A stretch of DNA of 64,000 nucleotides, taken from positions 7,084,066-7,148,065 of the forward strand of contig MU058213.1 of NCBI GenBank assembly GCA_013265495.1. The letters are read 5' to 3'. The stretch is from Vicugna vicugna (lineage: Eukaryota). Positions within the stretch are counted from its first letter, which is position 1. The number at the start of each line of letters is the position of its first letter. A model generated the notes under the pieces. The model was not told the DNA's origin, ran no database searches, and was given only the letters and a program-made list of their open reading frames with translations. Shown here one piece after another: positions 7,471 to 59,968 of this stretch. A program made the translations under genes and the position numbers.

Positions 7471-7596
7471 TTTTTCTTTGTGGGGGGGGGGCAGTAATTA
7501 GGTTTATTTATTTATTTTTGGAGGAGATACTGGGGATTGAACCCAGGACCTTGTGTGTGCTGAGTATGCACTCTACCACTTGAGCTACACCCTCCC
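7471..7596 (-). mobile_element. tRNA-derived SINE (camelid Vic-1-like)
   Basis: Reverse complement has A-box (tagctcaagtggtagag) and B-box (gggttcaatccc), then aataaataaacctaatta tail. Confidence 0.85.
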
Positions 7597-12759: not shown

Positions 12760-15700
12760 ATTTTAGCAAATGGTGCCGGAACAATTGAACGTCTACATAC
12801 AAAAAGATGAACTAGACACAGACCTCAGATATTCCACAACAATTAACTCAGGATGGGTTGTAGGCCTCAATGTAAAATGAAAACTATAACGACTTCTTAA
12901 AGAAAACACAGGAGAAAATCTAATGGCCTTGGGTTTGGTGATGGGTTTTTAAATACAATACCAAAGGCACAGTCTATGAAAGAAAAAAAATGATAAATTG
13001 GACTTCATTGAAATTCAGACTTCTGCTCTGTGAAAGACACTGTTAAGAAAATGAAAAGCCAAGCCACAGACTGGAGGAAAGTACGTGCAGAACACATACC
13101 TGATAAAGGGCTTACATCCAAAATAGGGAAGAACTTAGAAGCTAACCAATTTTTTTTAAAAAAGGATGAAAAGGGGTCAAAAGATCTGAGCAGACACTGC
13201 ACCAAAGAAGATACAGGTGGCAAATAAGCACATGAAAAGGAGCGCCACGCCATCTGTCATTAGGGAGTCGCGATACCACTACGGAACGAGCAGAATGACT
13301 CCACCCAAAACCAGCGACAACACCGACTGCCGGAGAGGACGCAGAGCAGCAGGAACCCTCACTCAGCACTGATGGGGACGCCAAATGGTGCGGCCGCCTT
13401 CAAAGACAGTTCGGCAGCTTCTCACAAAACGAAACATAGTCTTACCACCTGACTCAGTAACTGTATTCCTAGGAGTTTCTCCAAATGAGCTGAAACTCAG
13501 GCCACCACAAAAGTCTGCACAGATGTTTATAACAGCTGTATTCATCAACTGTCAAAAACTGGAAGCAACCAACATGTCCTCTAACAGATGAGCAGGAAAA
13601 CAAACTGCGCTACATCTAGACAGGGAAACATGACCCATTTGATAAAAAGAAACAAGTGATCAAGGCACTAAAAGACAGGGAGGAACCTTAAATGCACATT
13701 GCTAGATGAAGGAGTCAGGCTGAAAGCGCTTCTAGCTTCCTACTGTGGGATTCTAATTATATGATATTCTGGAAAAGCAAGCTATAAAGCTGGTAAACAG
13801 ATCAGTGGCTGCCAGAAGTTCGGGGGCTGAGGTTGAGAAGTGCAGTGGATGTTAGGGGTGGTGAAACTATTCTGTGTGAGACCGTAAAGTAAATGCAAAT
13901 TAAGGGGGGAAAAGCATTTAGGAGAACAGGGGATCCCAGAAAGGAATAAAAATATGACAAACAACCCAGTGGTGTTCCAAATGTGTGAAACAATCTTATC
14001 AGCGGAGGTGGGGGGAGAGGTGCTCAGTAACTTCGGAAAAGAGAAAAATCTGAAACACCAAAGGAGAAAGGACCTGCACGTAGCACTGTCCTCTAGTTGA
14101 TAAAGTTGTTTCCCTTGGGGACAGGCATGCACAGCTCTGATACTGCTATACATATACACTGGAATTGAACACTTAAGTAAACAGACAGCAGCTGGCAGGG
14201 ACCAGGTCTCTCACAGTTGGTGTGGGAATTTACAGACAAACAAGAGGAGAAGACAAGAATGAGCTGTGTAGTAGTGGATTAGAGCTGTAGATAGCAGTAT
14301 GAACTCACGTTTAGCTTAACATGGATACAGATAGTTACATATAGAAAAATGCATAGATAGGTGTATGTACAAAGATTAGTACACACACATATATTTCCTT
14401 GCTCTTTCAGCTGAGAGGACCTAGAAGCAATGCCATGCCCACAGCAACAAGCACAACTCATGCCCAGATCTTATACCATTCTCCAATGAAAGGAACCACA
14501 GCTGCTTAGAGAAACGGCAGATTTGAGGACTGGAGCAGGAAACAGACAAGATGAGCTTGGAGCATCTTGTAGATCCAGAAAGTAAGGAAGTGCTCAAAAC
14601 ACAAAAACACTGATGTGTCCTAGGGACACAGGAGCCTACTGAAAGAGCTCTCAGTGGCCAAAGATGGAACACACTGGAGCAACAAAATGAAGCTGTACTG
14701 GATTATAATCCAAAGTAGGGAATAAATATCCATGAGTCCGACAACATAACGCCATTTGCAGCAACATGGATGCTCCTAGAGAATGTCATTCTAAGTGAAG
14801 TAAGCCAGAAAGAGAAAGAAAAATACCATATGAGATTGCTCATATGTGGAATCTAAAGACTCATGGACAGAGAATACAGACTTGTGGTTACCAGGGGGGT
14901 AGAGGGTGGGAAGGGATAGACTGGGATTTCAAAATTGTAGAATAGATAAACAAGATTACACTGTATAGCACAGGGAAATATACACAAAATGTTATGATAA
15001 ATCACAGAGAAAAAAATGTGACAATGAGTGTGTATATGTCCATGAATGACTGAAAAATTGTGCTGAACACTGGAATTTGACACAACATTGTAAAATGATT
15101 TTAAAACAATAAAAAATGTTAAAAAAAATCCATGAGTCCACACTGACATAAACAAATGATTAAATAAGTAAATAGGGAAATGAGACAAATCCACTGTGCA
15201 GAATTCCAGATAACTTATCCAGGTACTCCATCCTCAAGGAGGGGGCACAGAACTTCTTAAGTGGGGGCTGTGCATGGCGACTTCCCGCCACAGAGGGCAG
15301 GCAGTGCGGTAACAGAGGACGAGTAACTTGACAGGGCAGGAACCTGGGACCCACCGCCACAGCCAGGTGGTCAGCATTAACATCTACGTGACAAGTGTCA
15401 TGCCAAGAGGATGACCTTTCATATAAGATGATGAAACAGCATTTAACCTCTGGTGTCTTCCTCCAAAAATATACTCCCCCAATATAATCCTGAGCAAGAC
15501 ACCACACAAACACCAGCTGAGGGACATTCTACAAAATACCCGACCAGCAATCCTCAAAACTGTCAAAGTCACCAAAAATAAGGCAAGTCGGAGGAACCAC
15601 CACAGCTAAGGGCCTGAGGAGATATGACTGTCACATGTAACATGATCCGGATGGACAGAACGGGTTATGTACATAAGGGGAAACTGAGGAACTCTGAATA

Positions 15701-15885
15701 AACCATGGACTTCAGTTAATAATACTGTATCACTGCTAGTTTATTCACTGTGACAAACATATCCCACTCATGTAAGATGTTTTAAAAAGGGAAAACTGGG
15801 TGTGGGATACAGGGACGCTCTTACTATCGTCACAATGATTTTGTAAAGCTCAAACTATTCTAAAATTAAAAGTCTACCTTAAAAA
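12760..15885 (+). mobile_element. Old LINE-1 (L1MC-like), 3' ORF2 remnant plus long 3'UTR
   Basis: ORF2 C-terminal remnants (KDTVKKMKSQATDWRK, QMFITAVFI...KLE); 3' end ...aaaactattctaaaattaaaagtcta typical of L1M; subfamily from memory. Confidence 0.85.
14740..15128 (+). mobile_element. Younger 5'-truncated L1 3' end nested in the older L1
   Basis: gccatttgcagcaacatggatg...tgtatagcacagggaaata...A-tail; flanked by target-site duplication atccatgagtcc (14728-14739 and 15128-15139). Confidence 0.85.
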
Positions 15886-15994
15886 ATGTTGACAGTCTTT
15901 TCCCAACTGACACTCACCAAAAAATTAATGGATAGATTTTCTTCTGTTTTTATGAAAATTCTGATGCAGAGGCAATGGAGTGAGCTAATTTCCA

Positions 15995-16200
15995 GCTGTG
16001 TTGGAGTAAGAGAGTAAGAGATTTGGGTTCTGCTTCTTACTGGCCATGTGATTTGGGGAAAGTCAACCTCACTGAGCCTCAGTTCTCTCATCAGTCAAAT
16101 GGGCTCATGATACCTACTTCCCAGGCTTGTTGTAGGAATTAAACATTGTCATCTTTGTCCAGCATTTATCACGCACTTGCATTAAGCTCAGGAAACAGTT
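15995..16200 (+). mobile_element. MIR SINE
   Basis: MIR core: aagtcaacctcactgagcctcagttctctcatcagtcaaatggg...ttgttgtaggaattaaa. Confidence 0.75.
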
Positions 16201-18218
16201 GTCCTTGTCAGCTAGCCAGTGTGGACTGGTGGACAAAACCAATGTCTTGGTAGTAAAGAGATTTCAACAGAAAGACTCAGAATGTATAAAATCGATGCCG
16301 GGTCCTTTATTGCGGAGGAGAGAGGGATAAAGTCTTACACCGAACCCACCAAGTATTAACATCAGTTCCAGAAAAATATTCAAACAGGTACTTACACCAG
16401 GAACAACTGACAGATTCTAACTCACAGAAACCCTTTCTGGTGGGAGAGACTGGGGGAGTTTCTTCTCTAATCTACTCACTCTGACTTCTGGGTTAAGCCC
16501 GTACAAACAGGTTTCCCATCCCTAGCTTTGTGGGTGCAGCCTGAAAGAGATGCCCTTCTCCTTTCTCACCTCCTGCCCCTTTTTTTGCTCTTCTTTAGCC
16601 TGTCTGTTCTTTCACTCTTTCACGCCCTCCTCTCCCTGAAAGCCCTCCATGTCTCTCCTCTGAGATACATGGATGAACATTCTCTGCTCCATCCCTGCTC
16701 CACAGTCAAGTCCTGAGAATGGAGAAGATGGAGAAGAATAAAAAACAATCCAACCTTATGCCCAGCAAAGGTTAACTTCTACTAGCCAGTCAATGGAAAT
16801 ACTAAAAAAAAAAAAACAACCCTCCCACCAGCAGACCTCCTTATACATCACTAAGCTCACAGGGGGTCTCGCTATGAAAGGCCGCCTTCTAGTCCCCCAG
16901 CCTCAGCAAGGGCGGAGGCAGGAGGCGGGGCAAGGCAGGTGAAAGAAGGACCACCGGCGTACATGCCATTTCCTAGAAATATTTCACACACATGTTACCA
17001 AGGCATGGAATCTCTACAAAGATGATTATAAAATTTTCATTCAAATAAACAACCACCATGTTTTCAAAACAGATTTTTAAAAACTGTATTTCTTACACTG
17101 TGCACAAACCTTTTATACTAAATATCAAACTACATTCTTCCAGGGGGATAAAAAGCTTTCCCATGTTTTCTGACCTTGTGCAACCAAAACTCCCATGAAT
17201 CTAGGGGGTCTGATATTCCTTACAGTTTTTACTAGTAGCATTTAACTGCAGTCATCAACACATGGTTCCAAGAAATGAGCCCTTAACTCCACTCCCTAAA
17301 GGAACCGCTCTGTGTTAGGTCATCAAATTAACGATTTTCAGGACTAGGAGGGATTGGCCATCATGAAACATTATTTCCTACCCACCAACAGTCTACATAT
17401 ACTCACCAACTTGATATGGTCCAAAGTGGATGGGAACTTTAAAAACAAAAACAAAAAAACGGGGTGGAGGGTAGAAACCCTGTCTTGCTGCCAAGATAAA
17501 TGATGTTGGCTGTAAAATAAATTCAAGGACACCCCACACTAAGATCCAAACACAACGTTTTGCCGATGTGCCAGCAGAGTCAGGGTTTTGGGCTTCGTTA
17601 ACAGACAGACAGGAAGGAAGGAGGTAGGAGGCAAATTGCAGGTTCTTTGACAAGAGAAAGCCAAGAGAGCCAAGGAGGCCAAATCCCCAACTGGAAACAG
17701 GCCACAGGAGGATACCCTTGAAACCATTATCCACTGCCCTGTGCAAGCACCACACAGTAGGCAGAGTCTCTCCTAGGTCCACAAAGGCCAAATTTATCGG
17801 ATTATACATTAAATGTATTTATTTGATTTATTAAGAGCCTCCACTGTACCAAGGACAATGCTATAGACATTACATGAATTATCTCATTTAATTCTCACAA
17901 CAACCCTATAAAGTAAATATGGTTATTCCCAGGCAGGGCACACCACCCGGGGAAGACTCCAGGGGAAGAATTCAGCTTAAGTGAACTCCCAGGCTCACAG
18001 GGAACTAGACCTGTGTTGAGGGTGAAACAATCATTGTAACTGTCCCCCTCGCCACGGACTAACAGCAGCACAAGTGAGTCTAGACAGGCTCACCACTGGG
18101 CAACCTCAGGTCTGCATTCTTTATTGGGGGAAGGGATAGAAAATGATTGATTCAACTCCTCTCTGAGAGGAAGCCCTCAAAAACTCTGATACCTAAGCCA
18201 GAGTTCCATTAGAAAACA

Positions 18219-18550
18219 CAGCTGACCCTTGCACAGCACAGGTTTGAACTGTGTGGGTTAGCTTACACGTGGATTTTTTCCAATAAATGTAGCGCCTGTA
18301 TTCTCATTACACAGATCTTTACGTTAATTAAGGGTGTGGGAAAGTCTGCATTCAATTAGGTAACACAATGAGTGGAAACAAAATAACAAGGGCTTGAATC
18401 CTGATTCTATCCAAACTGTTTAGAGCTTCCAGCCCTGAGGTGAGTCACCGACCAATCCCTTTGTTTTTGAGGCAGAAATAGCAATATGAGGATTTTCGAC
18501 CGCCTGGGAGTTCGGTGCCCCTCTCCCTCAGGTGGTTCAAGGGTCAAATG
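18219..18550. mobile_element. Tigger2-family (TcMar) non-autonomous DNA transposon
   Basis: Terminal inverted repeats cagctgacccttgcacagcac... and ...gttcaagggtcaaatg. Confidence 0.8.
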
Positions 18551-18639
18551 ACCCACCTTACCTGGCTCTTCCAGTTAAATGTCTCATCCTCAGTTTCCAA
18601 TTATGCTGCACACTTAGTTTTCCTCAGACCCCATTTAAG

Positions 18640-20262
18640 ACTTCCCGGTGGCCCTTCAGAGGCGCTGAGCGTGCAGGGCGGGAAACGAGAGCCTCGCGGG
18701 CGGGTCCTCGCCATGGGCACGGGCGCGCGGCGTGGGCTGGACTGCGCGTGCTCCGTGGCGTTGGCTGCGCATGCTCCGTGGCCTTGGCCACCTTGGGCAT
18801 GCGCAACTGGCTCCCCACAACCCCCCTCGGCGGCGTGCTCGTGCTGCCCAGGAGGGGGCGCGCGCGGCGGGGTTGCCCAGTGAACCGGTGGCGTCCTGGC
18901 CGCGCGCCTGCCGTCCTGCAGCTGTGTGCTTCCGCCAAGTACTTGTAGGAGGCTTTCTCGGGCATTGCTGCGTGATTATTGCGTGACTGTAAACCCAATA
19001 TCCCCAAAGAGTGCAGCAAATCAGCTAGTGTGGGAAACTAGTGCTCAACATCGGCTACAAGCCGCTTTTGGATCAGGGCTGCCCAGATTCAATCCTTCTG
19101 TTCCTCCACCTTGGAAGTGCATACCAAGCATCCAGGCGCCAGTCCCTCGCCACCCTGCGCGTGATCACCGCCCTGCGGAACGTCTCGCAGCGGACCTCGC
19201 AGGCCAGCATGGCCCACTCGCAGTATCAATGGATCCCCGGGGTGATAGACAGCCACGCGGCTGACATTCGCTCCCGATTCCGAGAAGCGATAGGCTTCAC
19301 TGACTGGATCAGGGAAAAGGAAGGCAAGGGCTGGAACCACTGTGAGGACGAGATCTCCCGTTTGCCTACCATCTGCATGGCTCACCTCATGGAGACGAGC
19401 AGTTCCACCTGAAGGAGGCCTTCGATCCCATTTAGCAGAGGAGCGTGATCTCACCCAACTTCGGCTTCCTGGGCCAGCCCTTGCAGTGTGAACCTGAGAT
19501 CCTGCCCCTCCCTCCACGCCCTCCTCTAGGCTCCCTCCTGCCCGGCGGACGCTGCCCGCTCTTCATTTAAAGCCCATCTGCAGACACTGAGCGCTGACGT
19601 GCAGGGTTCCTGCTGCACGTTCCCTACCTCGCCGCTGGTACCAGTGTCTGCCCTCTCGATGGTTCCAGAACTCAGTAGGAGCTCCAAGCCACAGCCACAT
19701 CCTGCTAAAACTGGGATAGGGGGACCAGCTCAGCCCTAAGAACAAGTGTGGTTTTGTTTTTTAGTCGCGGACATTTCATCCCTATGCGGTACTGAACTCA
19801 CTCTGTCAGGCTGCCGCAGTGGGATAGCCACTGGCCACCAGCCTTGCAAACTTGAGCCTGACCTTGGAGATAGGTTCTCGGAGGAAAGGCAGGCCAAGCC
19901 ATTTTAAGAGCACAGCCTGTGCTGGCTGACTACTGTTCTTCCAGCACCGCCCCCACCCCCCAACCCTCCAACCCTCCACCCAAGGACTGCCCAGTCCCTG
20001 GACTTCAAATTTTGCCTTTTCATTTCAAGCATAAGGCAATCAATACCTGCAGCCACGTGGCAGAAAGCAGTTGCTAGGCCAGAAGAAAGGGCAGCTACGA
20101 AGCCAACTGATTTTGAAGGAAGCACAATTTATACCTTATTTTTTTTTAACTTAGGCTGTCTCACTGTGTCTCTGTTGCTTCAGAGCATAGGCTGATCACC
20201 ATCTAGTCAGGAAAGTAACCTGCTGGACTTGTAAGGACACAGAATACGAGCTAATTTGAAGC
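18640..20262 (+). pseudogene. DUSP5: Processed pseudogene (retrocopy) of dual specificity phosphatase 5
   Basis: ORF 19041..19412 (DQGCPDSILLFLHLGSAYQAS...ITALRNVS...YQWIPGVIDSHAADIRSRFREAIGF...HCEDEISRLPTICMAHLM) aligns to the DUSP5 catalytic domain. After a frameshift it continues QFHLKEAFD...SPNFGFLGQ...EILP to ATATSC*TAA (19706-19708), then DUSP5-like 3'UTR. No introns; stops at 19026 and 19433; boundaries approximate. Confidence 0.93.
18650..18915. promoter_or_regulatory. CpG-dense segment (small CpG island) at the 5' end of the DUSP5 retrocopy
   Basis: Very high GC with many CG dinucleotides compared with flanks; E2F-like GCGGGAAA (18678-18685) and three NRF1-like motifs (18743-18805). 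Confidence 0.6.
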
Positions 20263-20510
20263 TCTTGGGCCAAGTGGAGGCTGATTGTCTCAAAAGGGAG
20301 GGCTGTGGGTGAAAGAACCAAGCAAGTGGTCGTCCCTGGGACAGCTTGGTTTCCCGGGGTTAAGCTGGGCACTACCAAGCGGGAGACACAGATTTCTATA
20401 TGGAGGTTTGGAGACGTCACCAGAGGAGAGAAACAAAGGGTCCAGAGACTAGGAGCAAGGCTGACTTACATTCTCATACTCCAGGTTTGTTAATATTAGA
20501 AGCCAGGTGT

Positions 20511-20570
20511 AGGGGGAACGGTATAGAGCTCAGTGGTAGAGTACGTGCTTAGCATACACAAGGGCCTCCG
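20511..20570 (+). mobile_element. Truncated tRNA-derived SINE head
   Basis: gggggaacggtatagagctcagtggtagagtacgtgcttagcat. Confidence 0.7.
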
Positions 20571-21759
20571 TTAATATATATATATGTAAATTGTGGAGCT
20601 CTGAAGTGTCTGGAATACTTAACGATTTATCTGGGATAGATATTGTAAACCATAAAATGTCAAAAAGAGAATGACGTCAGAAGGACAACATACAAAGATG
20701 CCCTTCCAGCAATTTGTCGTGGGATGTGGGCTGTCCCCGTGACTGGAGGAAGAAGTGGTGTAGAATCAGAGCAAGATTAGAAAACAGATTTTAACACTGG
20801 GCGGGGCCTCATTCCCCATTCACCACGCCAGTCACTAAGCCGCTCCCGGAGGTAGCAAGTACGGTGGTGTGGCCAAGTTTTTGATTCCCTGCAAACACTC
20901 ATGCTCCCCCATTAGAGGTCAGGACACCCCAGGCACTGCAGGGAGCCTGGGCACAGTTCCCCATCCCTTGGGCAGCGCCCTGCTCAGTCTCTGGAAACCT
21001 AGCTGTCCCAGGGGTAGGCTATGTGCTTTTTCCTTTACCTTAGAAACAATTCAGGACCTCTTCTTGAACTAGACTTTGAAAAATCAAAAGCTGCTTAATT
21101 TCTCCATGAGGCAAGGGAAGCTTCACGTTTACTGCCTAAAGCTCAGCTCTCCTTCTTGAGGGTAGGGAGGAAAAACAGCCTCTTGTTCTTTCCTGATGAA
21201 CTTACTGCCAAGGAAACAAGAGCTCATTCTCAAACAGGCCATCCTGCCAAAATGTTTATAGTCACTGGCTCTAGTTGGAGTTCCAGGTGATTCAGACTTT
21301 CCTCTTTCTACTTTCCTGTATTTTTGAACTTTCTACAGTGATTCTGTATTCCTCCTGTATGTCAGAAAAAAACGCACACAAAAATTCCTGTTTTAAGTAT
21401 TGCCCCTCCCCTCAAACTTTGAAGATGTTTTTTATTCTAGGTGAGAATCAGCTACTTTGACCCCTAAGCATCTCACTTGTGCCTTCCTCGATCACAGCCC
21501 TTATCACTCTACATGGTCAGCATTGCCTTGTTTTTCAGGTCCTCTGTGCTTAGTTCGTTCACCAGTATAGAGTAGGCTTGTCTATTGAGTAAATTAATAA
21601 GTCAATGAATGAATAAGTGAATGACTGTGAAATCCTGTATTACCTGCTCAACTCTAAACTTTAAAATTTTTCCTAGTCATTTAGAGTTCATATCTATTAG
21701 GGCAAAGGTGATCCTTTAAGACCAAGATAGTTCCCCAAAGATCAAGAATCCACGATGGA

Positions 21760-22061
21760 GGGGGAAGGGTATAGCTCAAGTGGCAGAGCACATGGTTAGC
21801 ATGCATGAGGTCCTGGGTTCAATCCCCAGTACCTCCTCCAAGAATAAATAAACCTAATTACCTCCCCCCACCAAAAAAACAAAACAAAAAATTGTTAAAG
21901 TTTCTTTAGTATATAGCACAGGCACTATGTTCAGTATCTTGTAATAACCTTTAATGAAAAAGAATATGAAAAATATATGTATGTATATGTGTAACTGGGA
22001 CACTGTGTTGTCCACCAGGAATGGATACATTGTAATTGACTGTCCTTCAATTAAAAAAAAA
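21760..22061 (+). mobile_element. Composite retroposon: tRNA-derived SINE head joined to L1-type 3' tail
   Basis: SINE 21760-21890 followed by L1-like tail 21905-22061; one target-site duplication aagaatcca(c/t)gatgga at 21744-21759 and 22062-22077. Confidence 0.85.
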
Positions 22062-23796
22062 AAGAATCCATGATGGAATTTGAAATCTGGCAACCTTGCT
22101 GACAGAGAAACTTATAACTTACTTGAAACATTTCTGTATTTCTGATCCAAGCTCCTTGCTAATCCTTATATTAATTAATCTTTAGAAATGTACTTGGAAG
22201 TATGAGAGCCTTGGGCTATGATGGAGTATAGCTGGGAACGTTCTCATTTGTCGTCTCCTGCTGTTTAAAAAAGAACAGCCACCTCCATAGCCAGGTTCCA
22301 TTGACGTATATGTGTTTTCTGGTCTGTTTCATAGGAATAGAAAGCTGATGGTTCAAGTGCAGAACAGTAAGAGTGAAGGGGTGGGAGAAGGGCAAGTGAT
22401 TATCCTAAATCCTTAGCTCATTTCTATACTAGGATTTCAGGGGTTCAAGAAAGCCCTCCGGTACTCCAAGCATTCTCCATTTCCTCACTCCCTTAATAGA
22501 GGAAAAAAGCTTCTATTCCAAGATAAGGCCAACCCTATAAACTCACCTCCAGGAAAGGGACATGGGCTCACAGCCATATCACGACTCAAGCTGCATCCCA
22601 CACCTGGAAAGGGGAGAGAGAGGCCCTGCAGAGACCAGGAAGGGAAGTTTGGAGAGCTCAGTCCATCCCTGACCAGTCCCAGTCTTGCCCGGAGATTGTC
22701 TAGCTTTTGGACTCGACGCAGGCTATTTAACATTGGAACTGTTGGGTTTGTATTTCTCTGAGGTCTAGATAACGGAGCTTCGGGTTTTCTCCCCTTACCC
22801 TGTACTGCGGAGAACAGAACTGAGCAGCCTGATGAGGGACGCATAGCTGGGAACAGCACAAATGCAAAAGAGGACTTGCAAAGGGGAAAGAGTTCTTCTC
22901 TGTTTTAAGAAACCTGCTGATATAGGGAATGCGCCTGATTTTGTGCAGAAATGCTGCCTTCGGTGGACCAAATTCAGCCACAATCAAGCTAATTGAATGC
23001 ACAAATGTAATATTTTTCCAGGGCACCTCCAATTTAATGCTTGATGAAATCGTGTCTTTCGCATATATTTACAAAAGCTTTTCTTCATCCAGAAATGTCT
23101 GTTAAAATTGCTTATAGATGCTGAGATAGCAAATCACTCTTCTAATGTAATGAGATAAGTCATCTCTATAAACTTTGCTTGCTCAAATGTACTCGCATAA
23201 AAGAAATCAGGCTACAGGCTTTTTCCAATAAATAGAATGAACAACTGGAACTTGATGGCTATAGCATGTTCTGCCTCATTGCTAAGGGATGTTTAAAATT
23301 GCTCCCTCTCTCTCTCTCTCGCAGCGGAGTTTTCATTTTGGTGGCTGATGGAAAAAGGAGGTCAGGTAAACTGATGTGGTTAAGAAGCCAAAGCCGTTTG
23401 TCAAAACGTGGGGAGAGGCCTGGAGATTGGAGTCATTTAAAGACTAAAAATTGATTTAAAAGATTTCTGTCCTCAAATCATTTTTCTTGCTAAACGTCGC
23501 CACTTGGTGAGCCTGGTTTTCCCTGCTCTAGCTATCTTTACTAATAATTCACGCTGCAGGAACTGCACGTCCTGGGAGGGTGTGTATGCATAGTCGCTGG
23601 TGCACAGTCCAGTAAGATGGGTCCAAAGATCAAGAGTCCGTGGAAAAGACGAGGCCTTGAGAGGTTTATCCATCTGTTTCTAAGTAAGATTTGTCTCCCA
23701 GCTCTAATCTGGAAGCCAGCTCTGGAACAAAAAGGCTTAGGAGGCCATGTCACACACGCCTCCAGTCACCATAGAGAGCCATCATATATGGCCACT

Positions 23797-23890
23797 CAGG
23801 TTGTGCACTGAGTAACTCCAGGGGACATACCATTCACGGAGGCTACAATGTGAAGGGTGCTGTCTGGAGCTGTGCAGTGGGACAGCCGTG
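23797..23890. mobile_element. MER91-like palindromic hAT-Tip100 MITE core
   Basis: ggttgtgcactgagtaactccagggg...cattcac...gtgaagggtgc...ctggagctgtgcagtg inverted structure. Confidence 0.65.
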
Positions 23891-25737
23891 TCCAGCCCCA
23901 GCACACAGGTCAGGGGGGAATAATATCACCTTCATGTTCACAATCATAGTTTGAATTTCCATGTCTGTACTGCCTGCATTTACCTTTAACGCTTCAAAGA
24001 ATAAAAGCCAAGTTCTTATTAACAGCTGACAAAATGTTAAAGCCTGCCCTATTCCTTCTCTTTACAAAGTAAAATCATTTGGGAGAAGATTCAAATCTCC
24101 AGATGGTTCTCTTTACTTCAAGAAATGGTTTGGACAGCTCAACTGTGGAGTCCAGAGTCCAGAGTCTGAGCCCAAATTCCAAGCGCCCTTTCTGTCGGTT
24201 TTGGAAAATACTGTAGGCAGCCACTGCTCCATTCAGGGGAGAGACAGCAGGTGGTGTTTGCAAGGGTTCTCCGGGGGCCTTCCCTGTGCCAGTCTGCCTT
24301 TTGGATTTTTCCTGCCTGCTGGAGGGTCCAGACCAGCCAAACCCATGGCCAAGCCTCTCTGGGGCAGGGCAGGAGCAGAAGCTGCCGTCTGGCGGCCCAC
24401 CCTTGCCTTCCCCCACCCCTGCCTTTCCCAACATGCAGTGTGGTGGAAGGAAGCAATGTCTAAGTGCTTCCTGATCTGAAACACTGCTCCCCACAACCGC
24501 CGCTCAGCCCGATCAGTTCTGGGGTCAAACCATCATGCGGGAGGAAGCAGAAAGTCCCCGCTTCCTATGCAGTTCCTTGAACCCTGCCCCCAGCACACCA
24601 AAAAGTACAGTTTGGGATAGGACATCTGAGAAAACGCCCTATTTTTTGCTTAACTTGCATTTTAAAGACTATCGCCGTGGCCTTTAAGGCACTCTCTGGG
24701 CCGCTGGTGACTCAAGAGCCACGTTCCGTCTGAGTCTCTATGTAAAGTTTGCCAAAGGTCAAAATAGCAAATCAGTCAGCCCACAGATGTGTATCACACG
24801 GTCAACATGGTGTCATTTCCACTGGATCCGAGTGCTGGGAGTAGGGCAGGCGTTCTCCATTTCTCCAGAACCCCCTTTCTGTCCTACCAGCCCGTCTCAC
24901 ACGTGCATTTCTGTTACCTGCCTAGTTCCTGCAGACCACTCAGTGTGTCAAGAATTAGCGACTGACACGGCATCCTCTACCAGGAGGAAATGGTGTGTGA
25001 GAGTTTGGGGACAGTCAGCAACGCCACCCCCAGCCCCGCACCAGCTATAGGGAGGTACCTGTGTGAGCGGGCTGTCTGCGGCGTCCTGGGCGAGCTGCCT
25101 GTCAACAGCACGTTTACCTTATGAATGGAGATAAGGATATAAACACACATACCTGCTTATCATGCAGCCCATCCATGGAAAGGATCAGAAACCAGGTGAT
25201 GCTACAAAGGCCCCTGGCTGGCTGGGAAGGAGTGGGAGTGGGATGTAATTTTCACCATATTTACACGTGCCTTTTGAAACGTGACGCCCTTGCGTGAATT
25301 ACCTATCACCCACTCTCAGAACCATCAGAATGTGCGTGGAGAGCTTCCTCCCAGCTGTAAAACCTCCCCTTAGATTTGAGGGCCCAGCTCACCCGCTTCC
25401 TTCCCTGGGTCGCCTTTTTCAGTCCTCCCAGTCAAAACCAGTCGCTTCCTTTTCTGTGCACCCACCCGCTTTTCTACATCTGCTGGACAAACATGCTGTA
25501 GCCTGACTCACGGATGGGTGAGCCCTTGAGGTTGAAGCAGGATGTTATTTATTTTTGTAATTCTTATGGAAATATTAGCAATATTTGGTAAAGAGTCCAA
25601 CCCCCACCCCCGCTTTCCTCCAGTTTGAGGCCCCCATGGACGCTTGTTTTCATCTGAATTACCAGTAGAAAGATGAACAGACGGAGGTCATTCTGGAATC
25701 TTTCCCCCGATAGGTACTGTCACCCCCTGGGCGCATC

Positions 25738-25940
25738 TAGCTGGCCCAACAGAACCTCCTATTGATGGAAATGTTCTCTGCCTGTGCTGTCCAATGCACT
25801 AGCTGCTAACCACGCGTGGATACTGAGTATCTGTAATGTGGATACCGGGACTGAGGAACTGAATTTTTAATTATTTATTTAAGCAAATTTAAATGTAAAC
25901 AGCCACATCTGGATAGCAGCTACCTTATGGGACAGCCCAG
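25738..25940 (+). mobile_element. MER3 (hAT-Charlie MITE)
   Basis: gatggaaatgttct...gctgtccaat...actgaggaactgaatttttaatt...aaatttaaatgtaaacagccacat...gctacc...ggacagc. Confidence 0.85.
25874..25879 (-). terminator. Candidate distal ANXA2 polyadenylation signal AATAAA inside MER3
   Basis: Plus-strand tttatt about 200 nt beyond the proximal signal, in the AT-rich core of MER3. Confidence 0.5.
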
Positions 25941-26075
25941 TTCCAGAGCCTTCCTCCTCAAGGGGGGGACAGCTTTCCCCTGTCGCACAGGACAACCCTG
26001 AGGCATGTCTGATTCTGAAACAATTAAACTGAGAGCAAGGTCAGCGAAGTACTTGTTCCTAAAGTAAAAATTCAG

Positions 26076-26081
26076 TTTATT
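26076..26081 (-). terminator. ANXA2 proximal polyadenylation signal AATAAA
   Basis: Plus-strand tttatt about 285 nt after the stop codon, at the end of a 3'UTR resembling mammalian ANXA2. Confidence 0.85.
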
Positions 26082-26365
26082 CATCTGTTTATGGCACAGT
26101 ACACAAGAAGCAACGTGTTTCACATCATAGATTTCACTTCCAACTCCTTGGAATGTTCACTTCTTTGGCTAAAATGAGAGACTAGATGGGATAGCCAGGT
26201 AATGCTCAGGCAACTAAAATCAGGCTGGGGAGGGTGGGCGGGCGACGCTGACGTCGTCCTCCCAGGGGTGGGCACGAGGGGGCTGTTAGTCGCAAGCTGA
26301 CTGGGTAGAACTGTTAGCGGGGAGCGTGGGAGCGTCCCTCCCGGGTGCGCGGGCCGTCGCGGGCT

Positions 26366-57942
<31,577 letters not shown>

Positions 57943-59319: not shown

Positions 59320-59968
59320 GTGTAATATCATTTAGCACTGAAAAGAAATGAGCTATCAAGCCATGAAAAGACATGGAGGAAACTTCATTGTATATTACCA
59401 AGTGAAAGACGCCAGTTTGAAAAGGCTCCACTCTGTATGGTTTCAATTCTACGACTTTCTGGAAAAGGCACAATTATGCAGACAGGAAAAGGATCAGTGG
59501 TTGCCAGGGATTAGAGGGGAAGGAGGGAGGGATGAATCAGCGGAGTACAGATGATTTTTAGGGCCATGATACTGTAATGGTGGATATATGTTGTTATAGG
59601 TTTGTCAAAATCCACAGAACATACAGGGGGAGAATATATCTCAAATGGTAGGGTGCATGCTTAGCATGCACATCCTGGGTTCAGTCCCCAGTACCTCCTC
59701 TAAAAATAAATACATAAATAAACCTAATTACTAATTACCTACCCCCCAACAAACAACAACAAAAATATATAGAATATACACCACCAAGAGTGAACCCTAA
59801 TGTGAACCACAGGTGTTGAGGGAGAATGATATGTTCAACATATTGTTCTGGTGGGCAGTCTTCACAGCTGGGGAGCTTGTGTGCTAGGAATATATGGGAA
59901 CTCTGTACTTCCCACTCGATTCTTCCATGAACCTAGAACTGCCCTAAAATACAAATTCTATTTTTTTA
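59320..59968 (+). mobile_element. Old L1M 3'UTR fragment interrupted by a SINE
   Basis: aagtgaaagacgccagtttgaaaaggct...ggatcagtggttgccagggatta...atatatgggaactctgtactt. Confidence 0.8.
59626..59770 (+). mobile_element. tRNA-derived SINE inserted in L1M
   Basis: Same SINE body; target-site duplication agaa(c/t)ataca at 59616-59625 and 59771-59780. Confidence 0.85.

Follow-up and report, generated by a model that had tools for sequence, protein, structure and literature searches.

The locus at 18640-20262 of the window (the whole stretch of 64,000 nucleotides that was analysed, from Vicugna vicugna) raises two questions: what the segment derives from, and how its 5' half has stayed rich in CpG dinucleotides. 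CpG islands were called with the Takai-Jones thresholds (500 bp, GC content of at least 55%, observed/expected CpG ratio (o/e) of at least 0.65), and the sole segment of the 64 kb that passes this rule is found here (merged windows 18322-19678). The account that we favour, and regard as probable, is that the segment is a dead DUSP5 retrocopy that predates the crown camelids, and that its CpG-rich 5' half was unmethylated in the germline and so became an orphan island.

Several comparisons support the view that 18640-20262 is a processed, intron-less copy of DUSP5 mRNA, now old and dead. A stop-free stretch of 127 codons (19029-19412, forward strand) covers most of the catalytic domain and matches DUSP5 and Pfam DSPc, with a score above the Pfam cut-off. 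When this stretch (19029-19409) was compared with solved structures, DUSP5 (2g6z) was the top match (110 bits, E 6e-31), ahead of the paralogs DUSP1 (72.5 bits), DUSP4 (70.5 bits) and DUSP2 (54 bits). The segment 3' of the frameshift at 19398 also ranked DUSP5 first, and in a full HMMER scan with the catalytic domain the top two matches were both named DUSP5. Among 143 candidates, a direct homologue search with the decayed domain gave no match at E 1e-10. Aligned with dromedary DUSP5 (P0323) over residues 139-384, 158 of the 237 aligned codons were identical, and in a 25-row tree the copy nested within eutherian DUSP5 (support 99/97), on a long branch. A contiguous DUSP5-like mRNA copy had been proposed in a sequence-only reading of this DNA; the ranking among DUSP1/2/4/5 and the tree both bear this out.

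The copy is not an assembly artefact, because 14 DNA or unlabelled runs from three organisms contain 0.87-0.94 of its words. Intact camelid DUSP5 proteins exist in databases; metagenome contigs searched for DNA of the parent gene gave 253 pattern matches, with 0 confirmed. The parent has four exons and adjoins SMC3 in the species examined, according to the available text of PMC3949351.

The exon junctions of the parent were mapped empirically, by alignment of 149 database relatives to camel DUSP5. Twenty-six of the 149 start at residue 176 after intron-like sequence, and 47 stop matching at residue 249, with 46 of these 47 continuing with G, as read-through of a GT donor gives. Both junctions are fused in the copy, on the forward strand: the exon 2/3 junction Q176/G177 (DQ/GG; 19074-19079, joint 19076/19077) and the exon 3/4 junction after I249 in phase 1 (FI/DC; 19299-19304, joint 19302/19303) are contiguous in the window, as the sequence-only reading had claimed. 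The intron-1 junction near residue 127 has decayed, with a weak alignment across it (7/200 shuffles reach the score) and no room for an intron. The order along the copy is kept as in a mature mRNA: 5'UTR, exon 2, exon 3, exon 4 and stop codon.

For the 5' end, frameshift-aware alignments were made to the N-terminal extensions of annotated DUSP5 proteins. The extensions of P0319, P0316, P0278, P0287 and P0006 resemble translated 5'UTR in differing frames; DUSP5 N-terminal extensions of this kind are likely annotation artefacts, usable as a proxy for the 5'UTR. A 5'UTR-derived segment was assigned to 18640-18736 (forward strand), with alignment scores reached by 0/200 shuffles for camel P0319 and P0278, 7/200 for P0287 and 18/200 for P0316; with five of the 17 extension proteins, the top match across all 64 kb begins at 18661. 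The copy starts roughly 170-190 nt upstream of the position of the parental start codon. The next segment (18737-18944, forward strand) is assigned to coding exon 1 (rhodanese/docking domain), much of which has been deleted, by its position between 5'UTR and exon 2 only. The alignment of residues 1-127 as protein was not above shuffled DNA (101/200 shuffles reach its score), so that the exon 1 remnant has no evidence as protein, and no Pfam match was found upstream of the catalytic domain. An N-terminal protein remnant that had been seen here (ARRGLDC for ARCVVLDC) is therefore given up, the left part of the motif aligning to camel DUSP5 5'UTR. Exon 1 has lost about 190 nt, including the start codon region, in several events whose positions are not fixable; the matches to translated 5'UTR thus place the start of the copy well within the 5'UTR. 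An internal deletion had been placed near 18885: the loss stands (about 190 nt, several events) but its place does not, as the largest loss is put near 18879 by an alignment that is not significant. A 23-nt unit is tandemly duplicated at 18731-18788 (2.5 copies matching at 82%), overlapping the exon 1 remnant.

At the other end, 19709-20262 (forward strand; CpG o/e 0.26) is probably derived from the DUSP5 3'UTR, assigned by its position after the stop only and with a putative right end. No AATAAA and no run of 7 A were found from 19701 to 21365, and the earlier observation that a poly(A) tail is absent holds over that interval. Candidate target-site duplications were rejected: they were mismatched 10-16-mers only, none behind an A-rich tail. 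Since these hallmarks (poly(A), target-site duplication) are gone, we infer rather than demonstrate that the L1 machinery made and inserted the copy, which is likely. The DUSP5 mRNA would thus have been reverse-transcribed and inserted by that machinery before the living camelids diverged. Just upstream of the copy, 18220-18420 is a candidate fragment of an old DNA transposon; further upstream, 13000-15900 is putative L1-like 3' sequence, with a younger-looking L1 3' end presumably nested at about 14740-15130.

The insertion had been called old, which agrees with the divergence of the copy from the parent and with its residues. Changes are found at 58 of the 340 non-degenerate sites (K2P 0.20; divergence about 17%). 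Dromedary and alpaca DUSP5 share S161, E255 and E196, for which the copy carries C161, K255 and, at 196, a codon derived from K. A crown-camelid source scored 7.8 log units below a pre-camelid source in likelihood, and a tree test, on a long branch, rejected the grouping of the copy with camelids (p 0.009). With three camelid residues missing and about 17% divergence, the copy appears, with fair confidence, to be older than the crown camelids. How much older was addressed with a 12-site likelihood, in which a source on the Laurasiatheria stem was better than Scrotifera by 2.8 log units and than crown Artiodactyla by 4.5. The lean to stem Laurasiatheria rests on two sites (S336 and E288, residues seen beyond Artiodactyla and beyond Scrotifera), the counter-sites A235 and H285 resemble cetruminants, and an artiodactyl placement was not rejected by the tree test (p 0.36-0.41). 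An early-laurasiatherian age is thus favoured weakly.

In a copy of this age, the core of the CpG island extends over 18640-19400, with GC contents of 0.73 and 0.57 in its two halves. The CpG o/e declines from 5' to 3' over the copy (0.91, 0.71, 0.53, 0.26), the first two values being those of the two halves of the core, and the flanks are at 0.22 and 0.31. The median of the window is 0.31, and 51 GC-rich control windows had a median of 0.38 and a maximum of 0.64. Over residues 158-384 the copy has 37 CpGs (o/e 0.64); a new CpG arose in 10 of the 58 changes.

These counts were compared with simulations to a similar divergence (150 runs each), a test that was chosen after the CpG profile had been seen. 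The simulated parents were back-translated and CpG-rich at the start (o/e 0.77-0.95), and methylated models had a CpG rate multiplied by 6-10. The methylated models left 8-18 CpGs (SD 3-4), with an o/e of at most 0.65; the unmethylated models left 36-52 CpGs, with an o/e of 0.85-0.97. Gains of CpG at least as numerous as the 10 observed occurred in 0/150 methylated runs at an equilibrium GC content (GC*) of 0.4. The CpG-rich 5' half of the copy would accordingly have stayed unmethylated in the germline, so that its CpGs survived. From the survival and gain of CpGs only, we judge it likely that the island is germline-unmethylated and hence persists as an orphan CpG island. Because the observed o/e of 0.64 is below that of the unmethylated simulations (0.85-0.97), the protection was presumably partial or intermittent.

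The same dead retrocopy could instead have been methylated, with its CpG excess produced by regional or local GC-biased gene conversion. The substitutions show a mild AT-to-GC excess, with W-to-S changes at 26/174 sites vs S-to-W changes at 19/166 (GC* 0.57, 45 substitutions), which differs from an assumed background of 0.33 (p 0.001) or 0.40 (p 0.018) but not significantly from 0.45 (p 0.08) or 0.50 (p 0.23). Outside CpG-prone contexts the counts, which are small, were 13/81 vs 6/68 (GC* 0.65). On these figures, the island may have undergone a degree of GC-biased gene conversion, which is suggested weakly. Strand-specific A-to-G editing was also considered and rejected (A>G 8/92 vs T>C 9/82). 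The last exon and 3'UTR of the neighbouring gene ANXA2 (26096-26547) are CpG-rich as well (22 CpG, o/e 0.64, GC 0.56) and form the highest GC-rich control in the window, vs the window median given above; with the last exon at this level, part of the excess may come from a GC drive acting regionally. A methylated model at GC* 0.6 attained the 10 CpG gains in 4-6% of runs, yet it left 17-18 CpGs (SD 3.6-3.7; highest o/e 0.56-0.60 in 150 runs) vs the 37 observed, and the CpG-poor flanks of the copy also argue against gene conversion as the whole explanation. We therefore consider it unlikely that conversion on methylated DNA replaces germline hypomethylation as the source of the island.

The coding sequence is disabled throughout. 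The part derived from exon 2 (parent residues 128-176; 18945-19076, forward strand; score 60, 0/200 shuffles) has a frameshift near 19004-19016 and a TAG at 19026. The coding part of exon 4 (19398-19708, forward strand) has a frameshift at 19398, TAG codons at 19433 and 19527, and the ancestral TAA at 19706-19708; further frameshifts lie near 19686 and, as a net one, near 19505-19529. This gives three internal stops, all TAG, and at least four frameshifts, in addition to one deleted codon and two 3-nt insertions that keep the frame. The sequence-only reading had listed the stops at 19026, 19433 and 19706, all of which are present, and a frameshift near 19398, where 1 nt is lost; absent from its list were the TAG at 19527, the frameshifts near 19004-19016, 19505-19529 and 19686, and the codon-size indels. 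The active-site loop (19338-19364, forward strand) has decayed to HCEDEISRL, from HCEAGISRS in dromedary P0323. With the loop changed and the docking domain not in an open frame with the catalytic domain, the copy is not a functional nuclear MKP (DUSP1/2/4/5) and, as read from its frames, makes no phosphatase.

An early life as a working retrogene for the catalytic domain, followed by later death, would fit the 121 catalytic-domain codons that have neither stop nor frameshift and in which both indels are in frame (gap chance 0.04-0.07), and the retention of the catalytic Cys and Arg and of the general-acid Asp. Zero stops in that region were also given by 17% of neutral simulations, and changes, although slightly rarer at conserved sites (24/87) than at variable sites (22/54), do not differ significantly between them (p 0.14). 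The first in-frame ATG of the stop-free stretch is at 19209, leaving only 67 aa, and this, the altered loop and the loss of the start codon region count against a coding past. The long open stretch is mildly unusual and leaves slight room for a coding phase early on; we regard such a phase as very unlikely.

The 3' end of ANXA2 (26076-26368, reverse strand; stop 26366-26368, poly(A) signal 26076-26081) is not part of the copy. Because ANXA2 is encoded on the minus strand, it and the copy are convergent, 5.8 kb apart; the copy had been described as facing ANXA2, which holds, at that distance. Nothing links the two, and the copy most likely does nothing for ANXA2. A 78-nt A-rich tract was noted in an ANXA2 intron (28834-28911).

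If the island were a live orphan promoter, a non-coding RNA would run towards ANXA2 and might oppose it. Besides the presence of the island, such a promoter would have in its favour that human DUSP5P1 is transcribed, as the available text of PMC3949351 states, and that four runs recorded as RNA contain part of the stretch, two of them, both from a single study of the reproductive tract, with 0.30-0.31 of its words. In all six runs that are RNA, or guessed to be RNA, the share is at most the size of the run relative to a whole-genome run, and since none exceeds its relative size the shares fit a genome-wide background. The contigs moreover carry no strand, and ANXA2 ends 5.8 kb off; a live promoter is, in our judgement, improbable to much the same degree as the coding past. 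Runs X17-X20 contain 0.04-0.18 of the words and X21-X24 contain zero; none of them was counted towards expression or habitat.

Six copies of a tRNA-headed SINE, which we take to be camelid-specific, were observed in the window (21760-21840, 31293-31367, 47539-47613, 7524-7596, 59626-59697 and 38633-38708); they are 78-89% like the first, and a shortened copy lies near 20510-20570. The tRNA genes called at these copies were rejected as false (four by ARAGORN, as tRNA-Ala/Thr, and one by Rfam). From 16000 to 27000, Rfam gave nothing but one SINE head.

A recent insertion whose template had diverged beforehand, through the re-copying of a pseudogene, would explain both the high divergence and the CpG retention without local hypomethylation, but a young insertion should retain poly(A) and target duplication, neither of which was found, the 3' part of the copy has already decayed to an o/e of 0.26, and the CpG question is merely shifted to the donor, which makes this barely credible.

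The favoured reading, a retrocopy with a germline-unmethylated 5' half, was set beside known systems. Four processed DUSP5 pseudogenes (DUSP5P1, DUSP5P2, psi3 and psi4) are described for human in the available text of PMC3949351, with DUSP5P1 lying within an ERV at 1q42.13 and being transcribed, and another human DUSP5 pseudogene on chromosome 3. They resemble the vicugna copy in having the same parent and in being intron-less and disabled, so that DUSP5 has been retrocopied repeatedly; unlike it, none is named beside ANXA2 in that text, where two are given as contig accessions only (PMC3949351). Since the text names no human DUSP5 pseudogene beside ANXA2, the vicugna copy looks like a separate insertion, with orthology to one of the two contig-accession copies a slight possibility.

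Retrocopy-derived CpG islands are represented in the available text of PMC4122923 by PPP1R26P1 in RB1, retro-RCC2 in ASRGL1, retro-OTUD4 in PARP11 and retro-KIAA2013 in PDXDC1. Three of these four islands come from the unmethylated 5' island of the parent, and the islands of intermediate methylation that are tabulated were 1-16% methylated in sperm (PMC4122923). The DUSP5 copy is similar in that a CpG island was apparently carried to a new site from the 5' island of the parent; the islands of that text (PMC4122923) are intronic, of primates and with measured methylation, whereas the DUSP5 copy is intergenic and older. Recombination hotspots that do not depend on PRDM9 and lie at germline-hypomethylated DNA, with equilibrium GC as their readout, are described for placental mammals in the available text of PMC11161765. 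The copy shares with these a putatively hypomethylated CpG island and a W-to-S rate that may be raised, but its skew is mild (45 substitutions), and the main text of PMC11161765 is without camel, alpaca or Vicugna.

An account that combines an insertion near the base of Laurasiatheria, which took the parental 5' CpG island to a site past ANXA2, tens of My without germline methylation, a PRDM9-independent hotspot and an orphan promoter directed towards the 3' end of ANXA2 in reproductive tissue is, in our view, very improbable when taken jointly. Literature searches, with most subscription journals outside their scope, found nothing on a DUSP5 retrocopy at ANXA2, an alpaca DUSP5 pseudogene or mammalian DUSP5 retrocopies. 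Within the same scope nothing was found that joins retrocopy, orphan CpG island and GC-biased gene conversion, and the camel retrocopy matches listed were off topic by title and start of abstract.

A DUSP5 retrocopy is an ordinary element of a very common kind, of which the surviving CpG island is the sole notable trait, and the retained island serves as one reasonable instance of a process already known. The copy is thus of little importance as a pseudogene; its value is that of a dated natural test with a known parent and with CpG retention that falls from 5' to 3'. It indicates that a transplanted CpG island can long resist decay at a new site. If laurasiatherians share the insertion, its decay in camelids, ruminants, horse, bats and dog, the last of which is without PRDM9, would test lineage differences in methylation and gene conversion.
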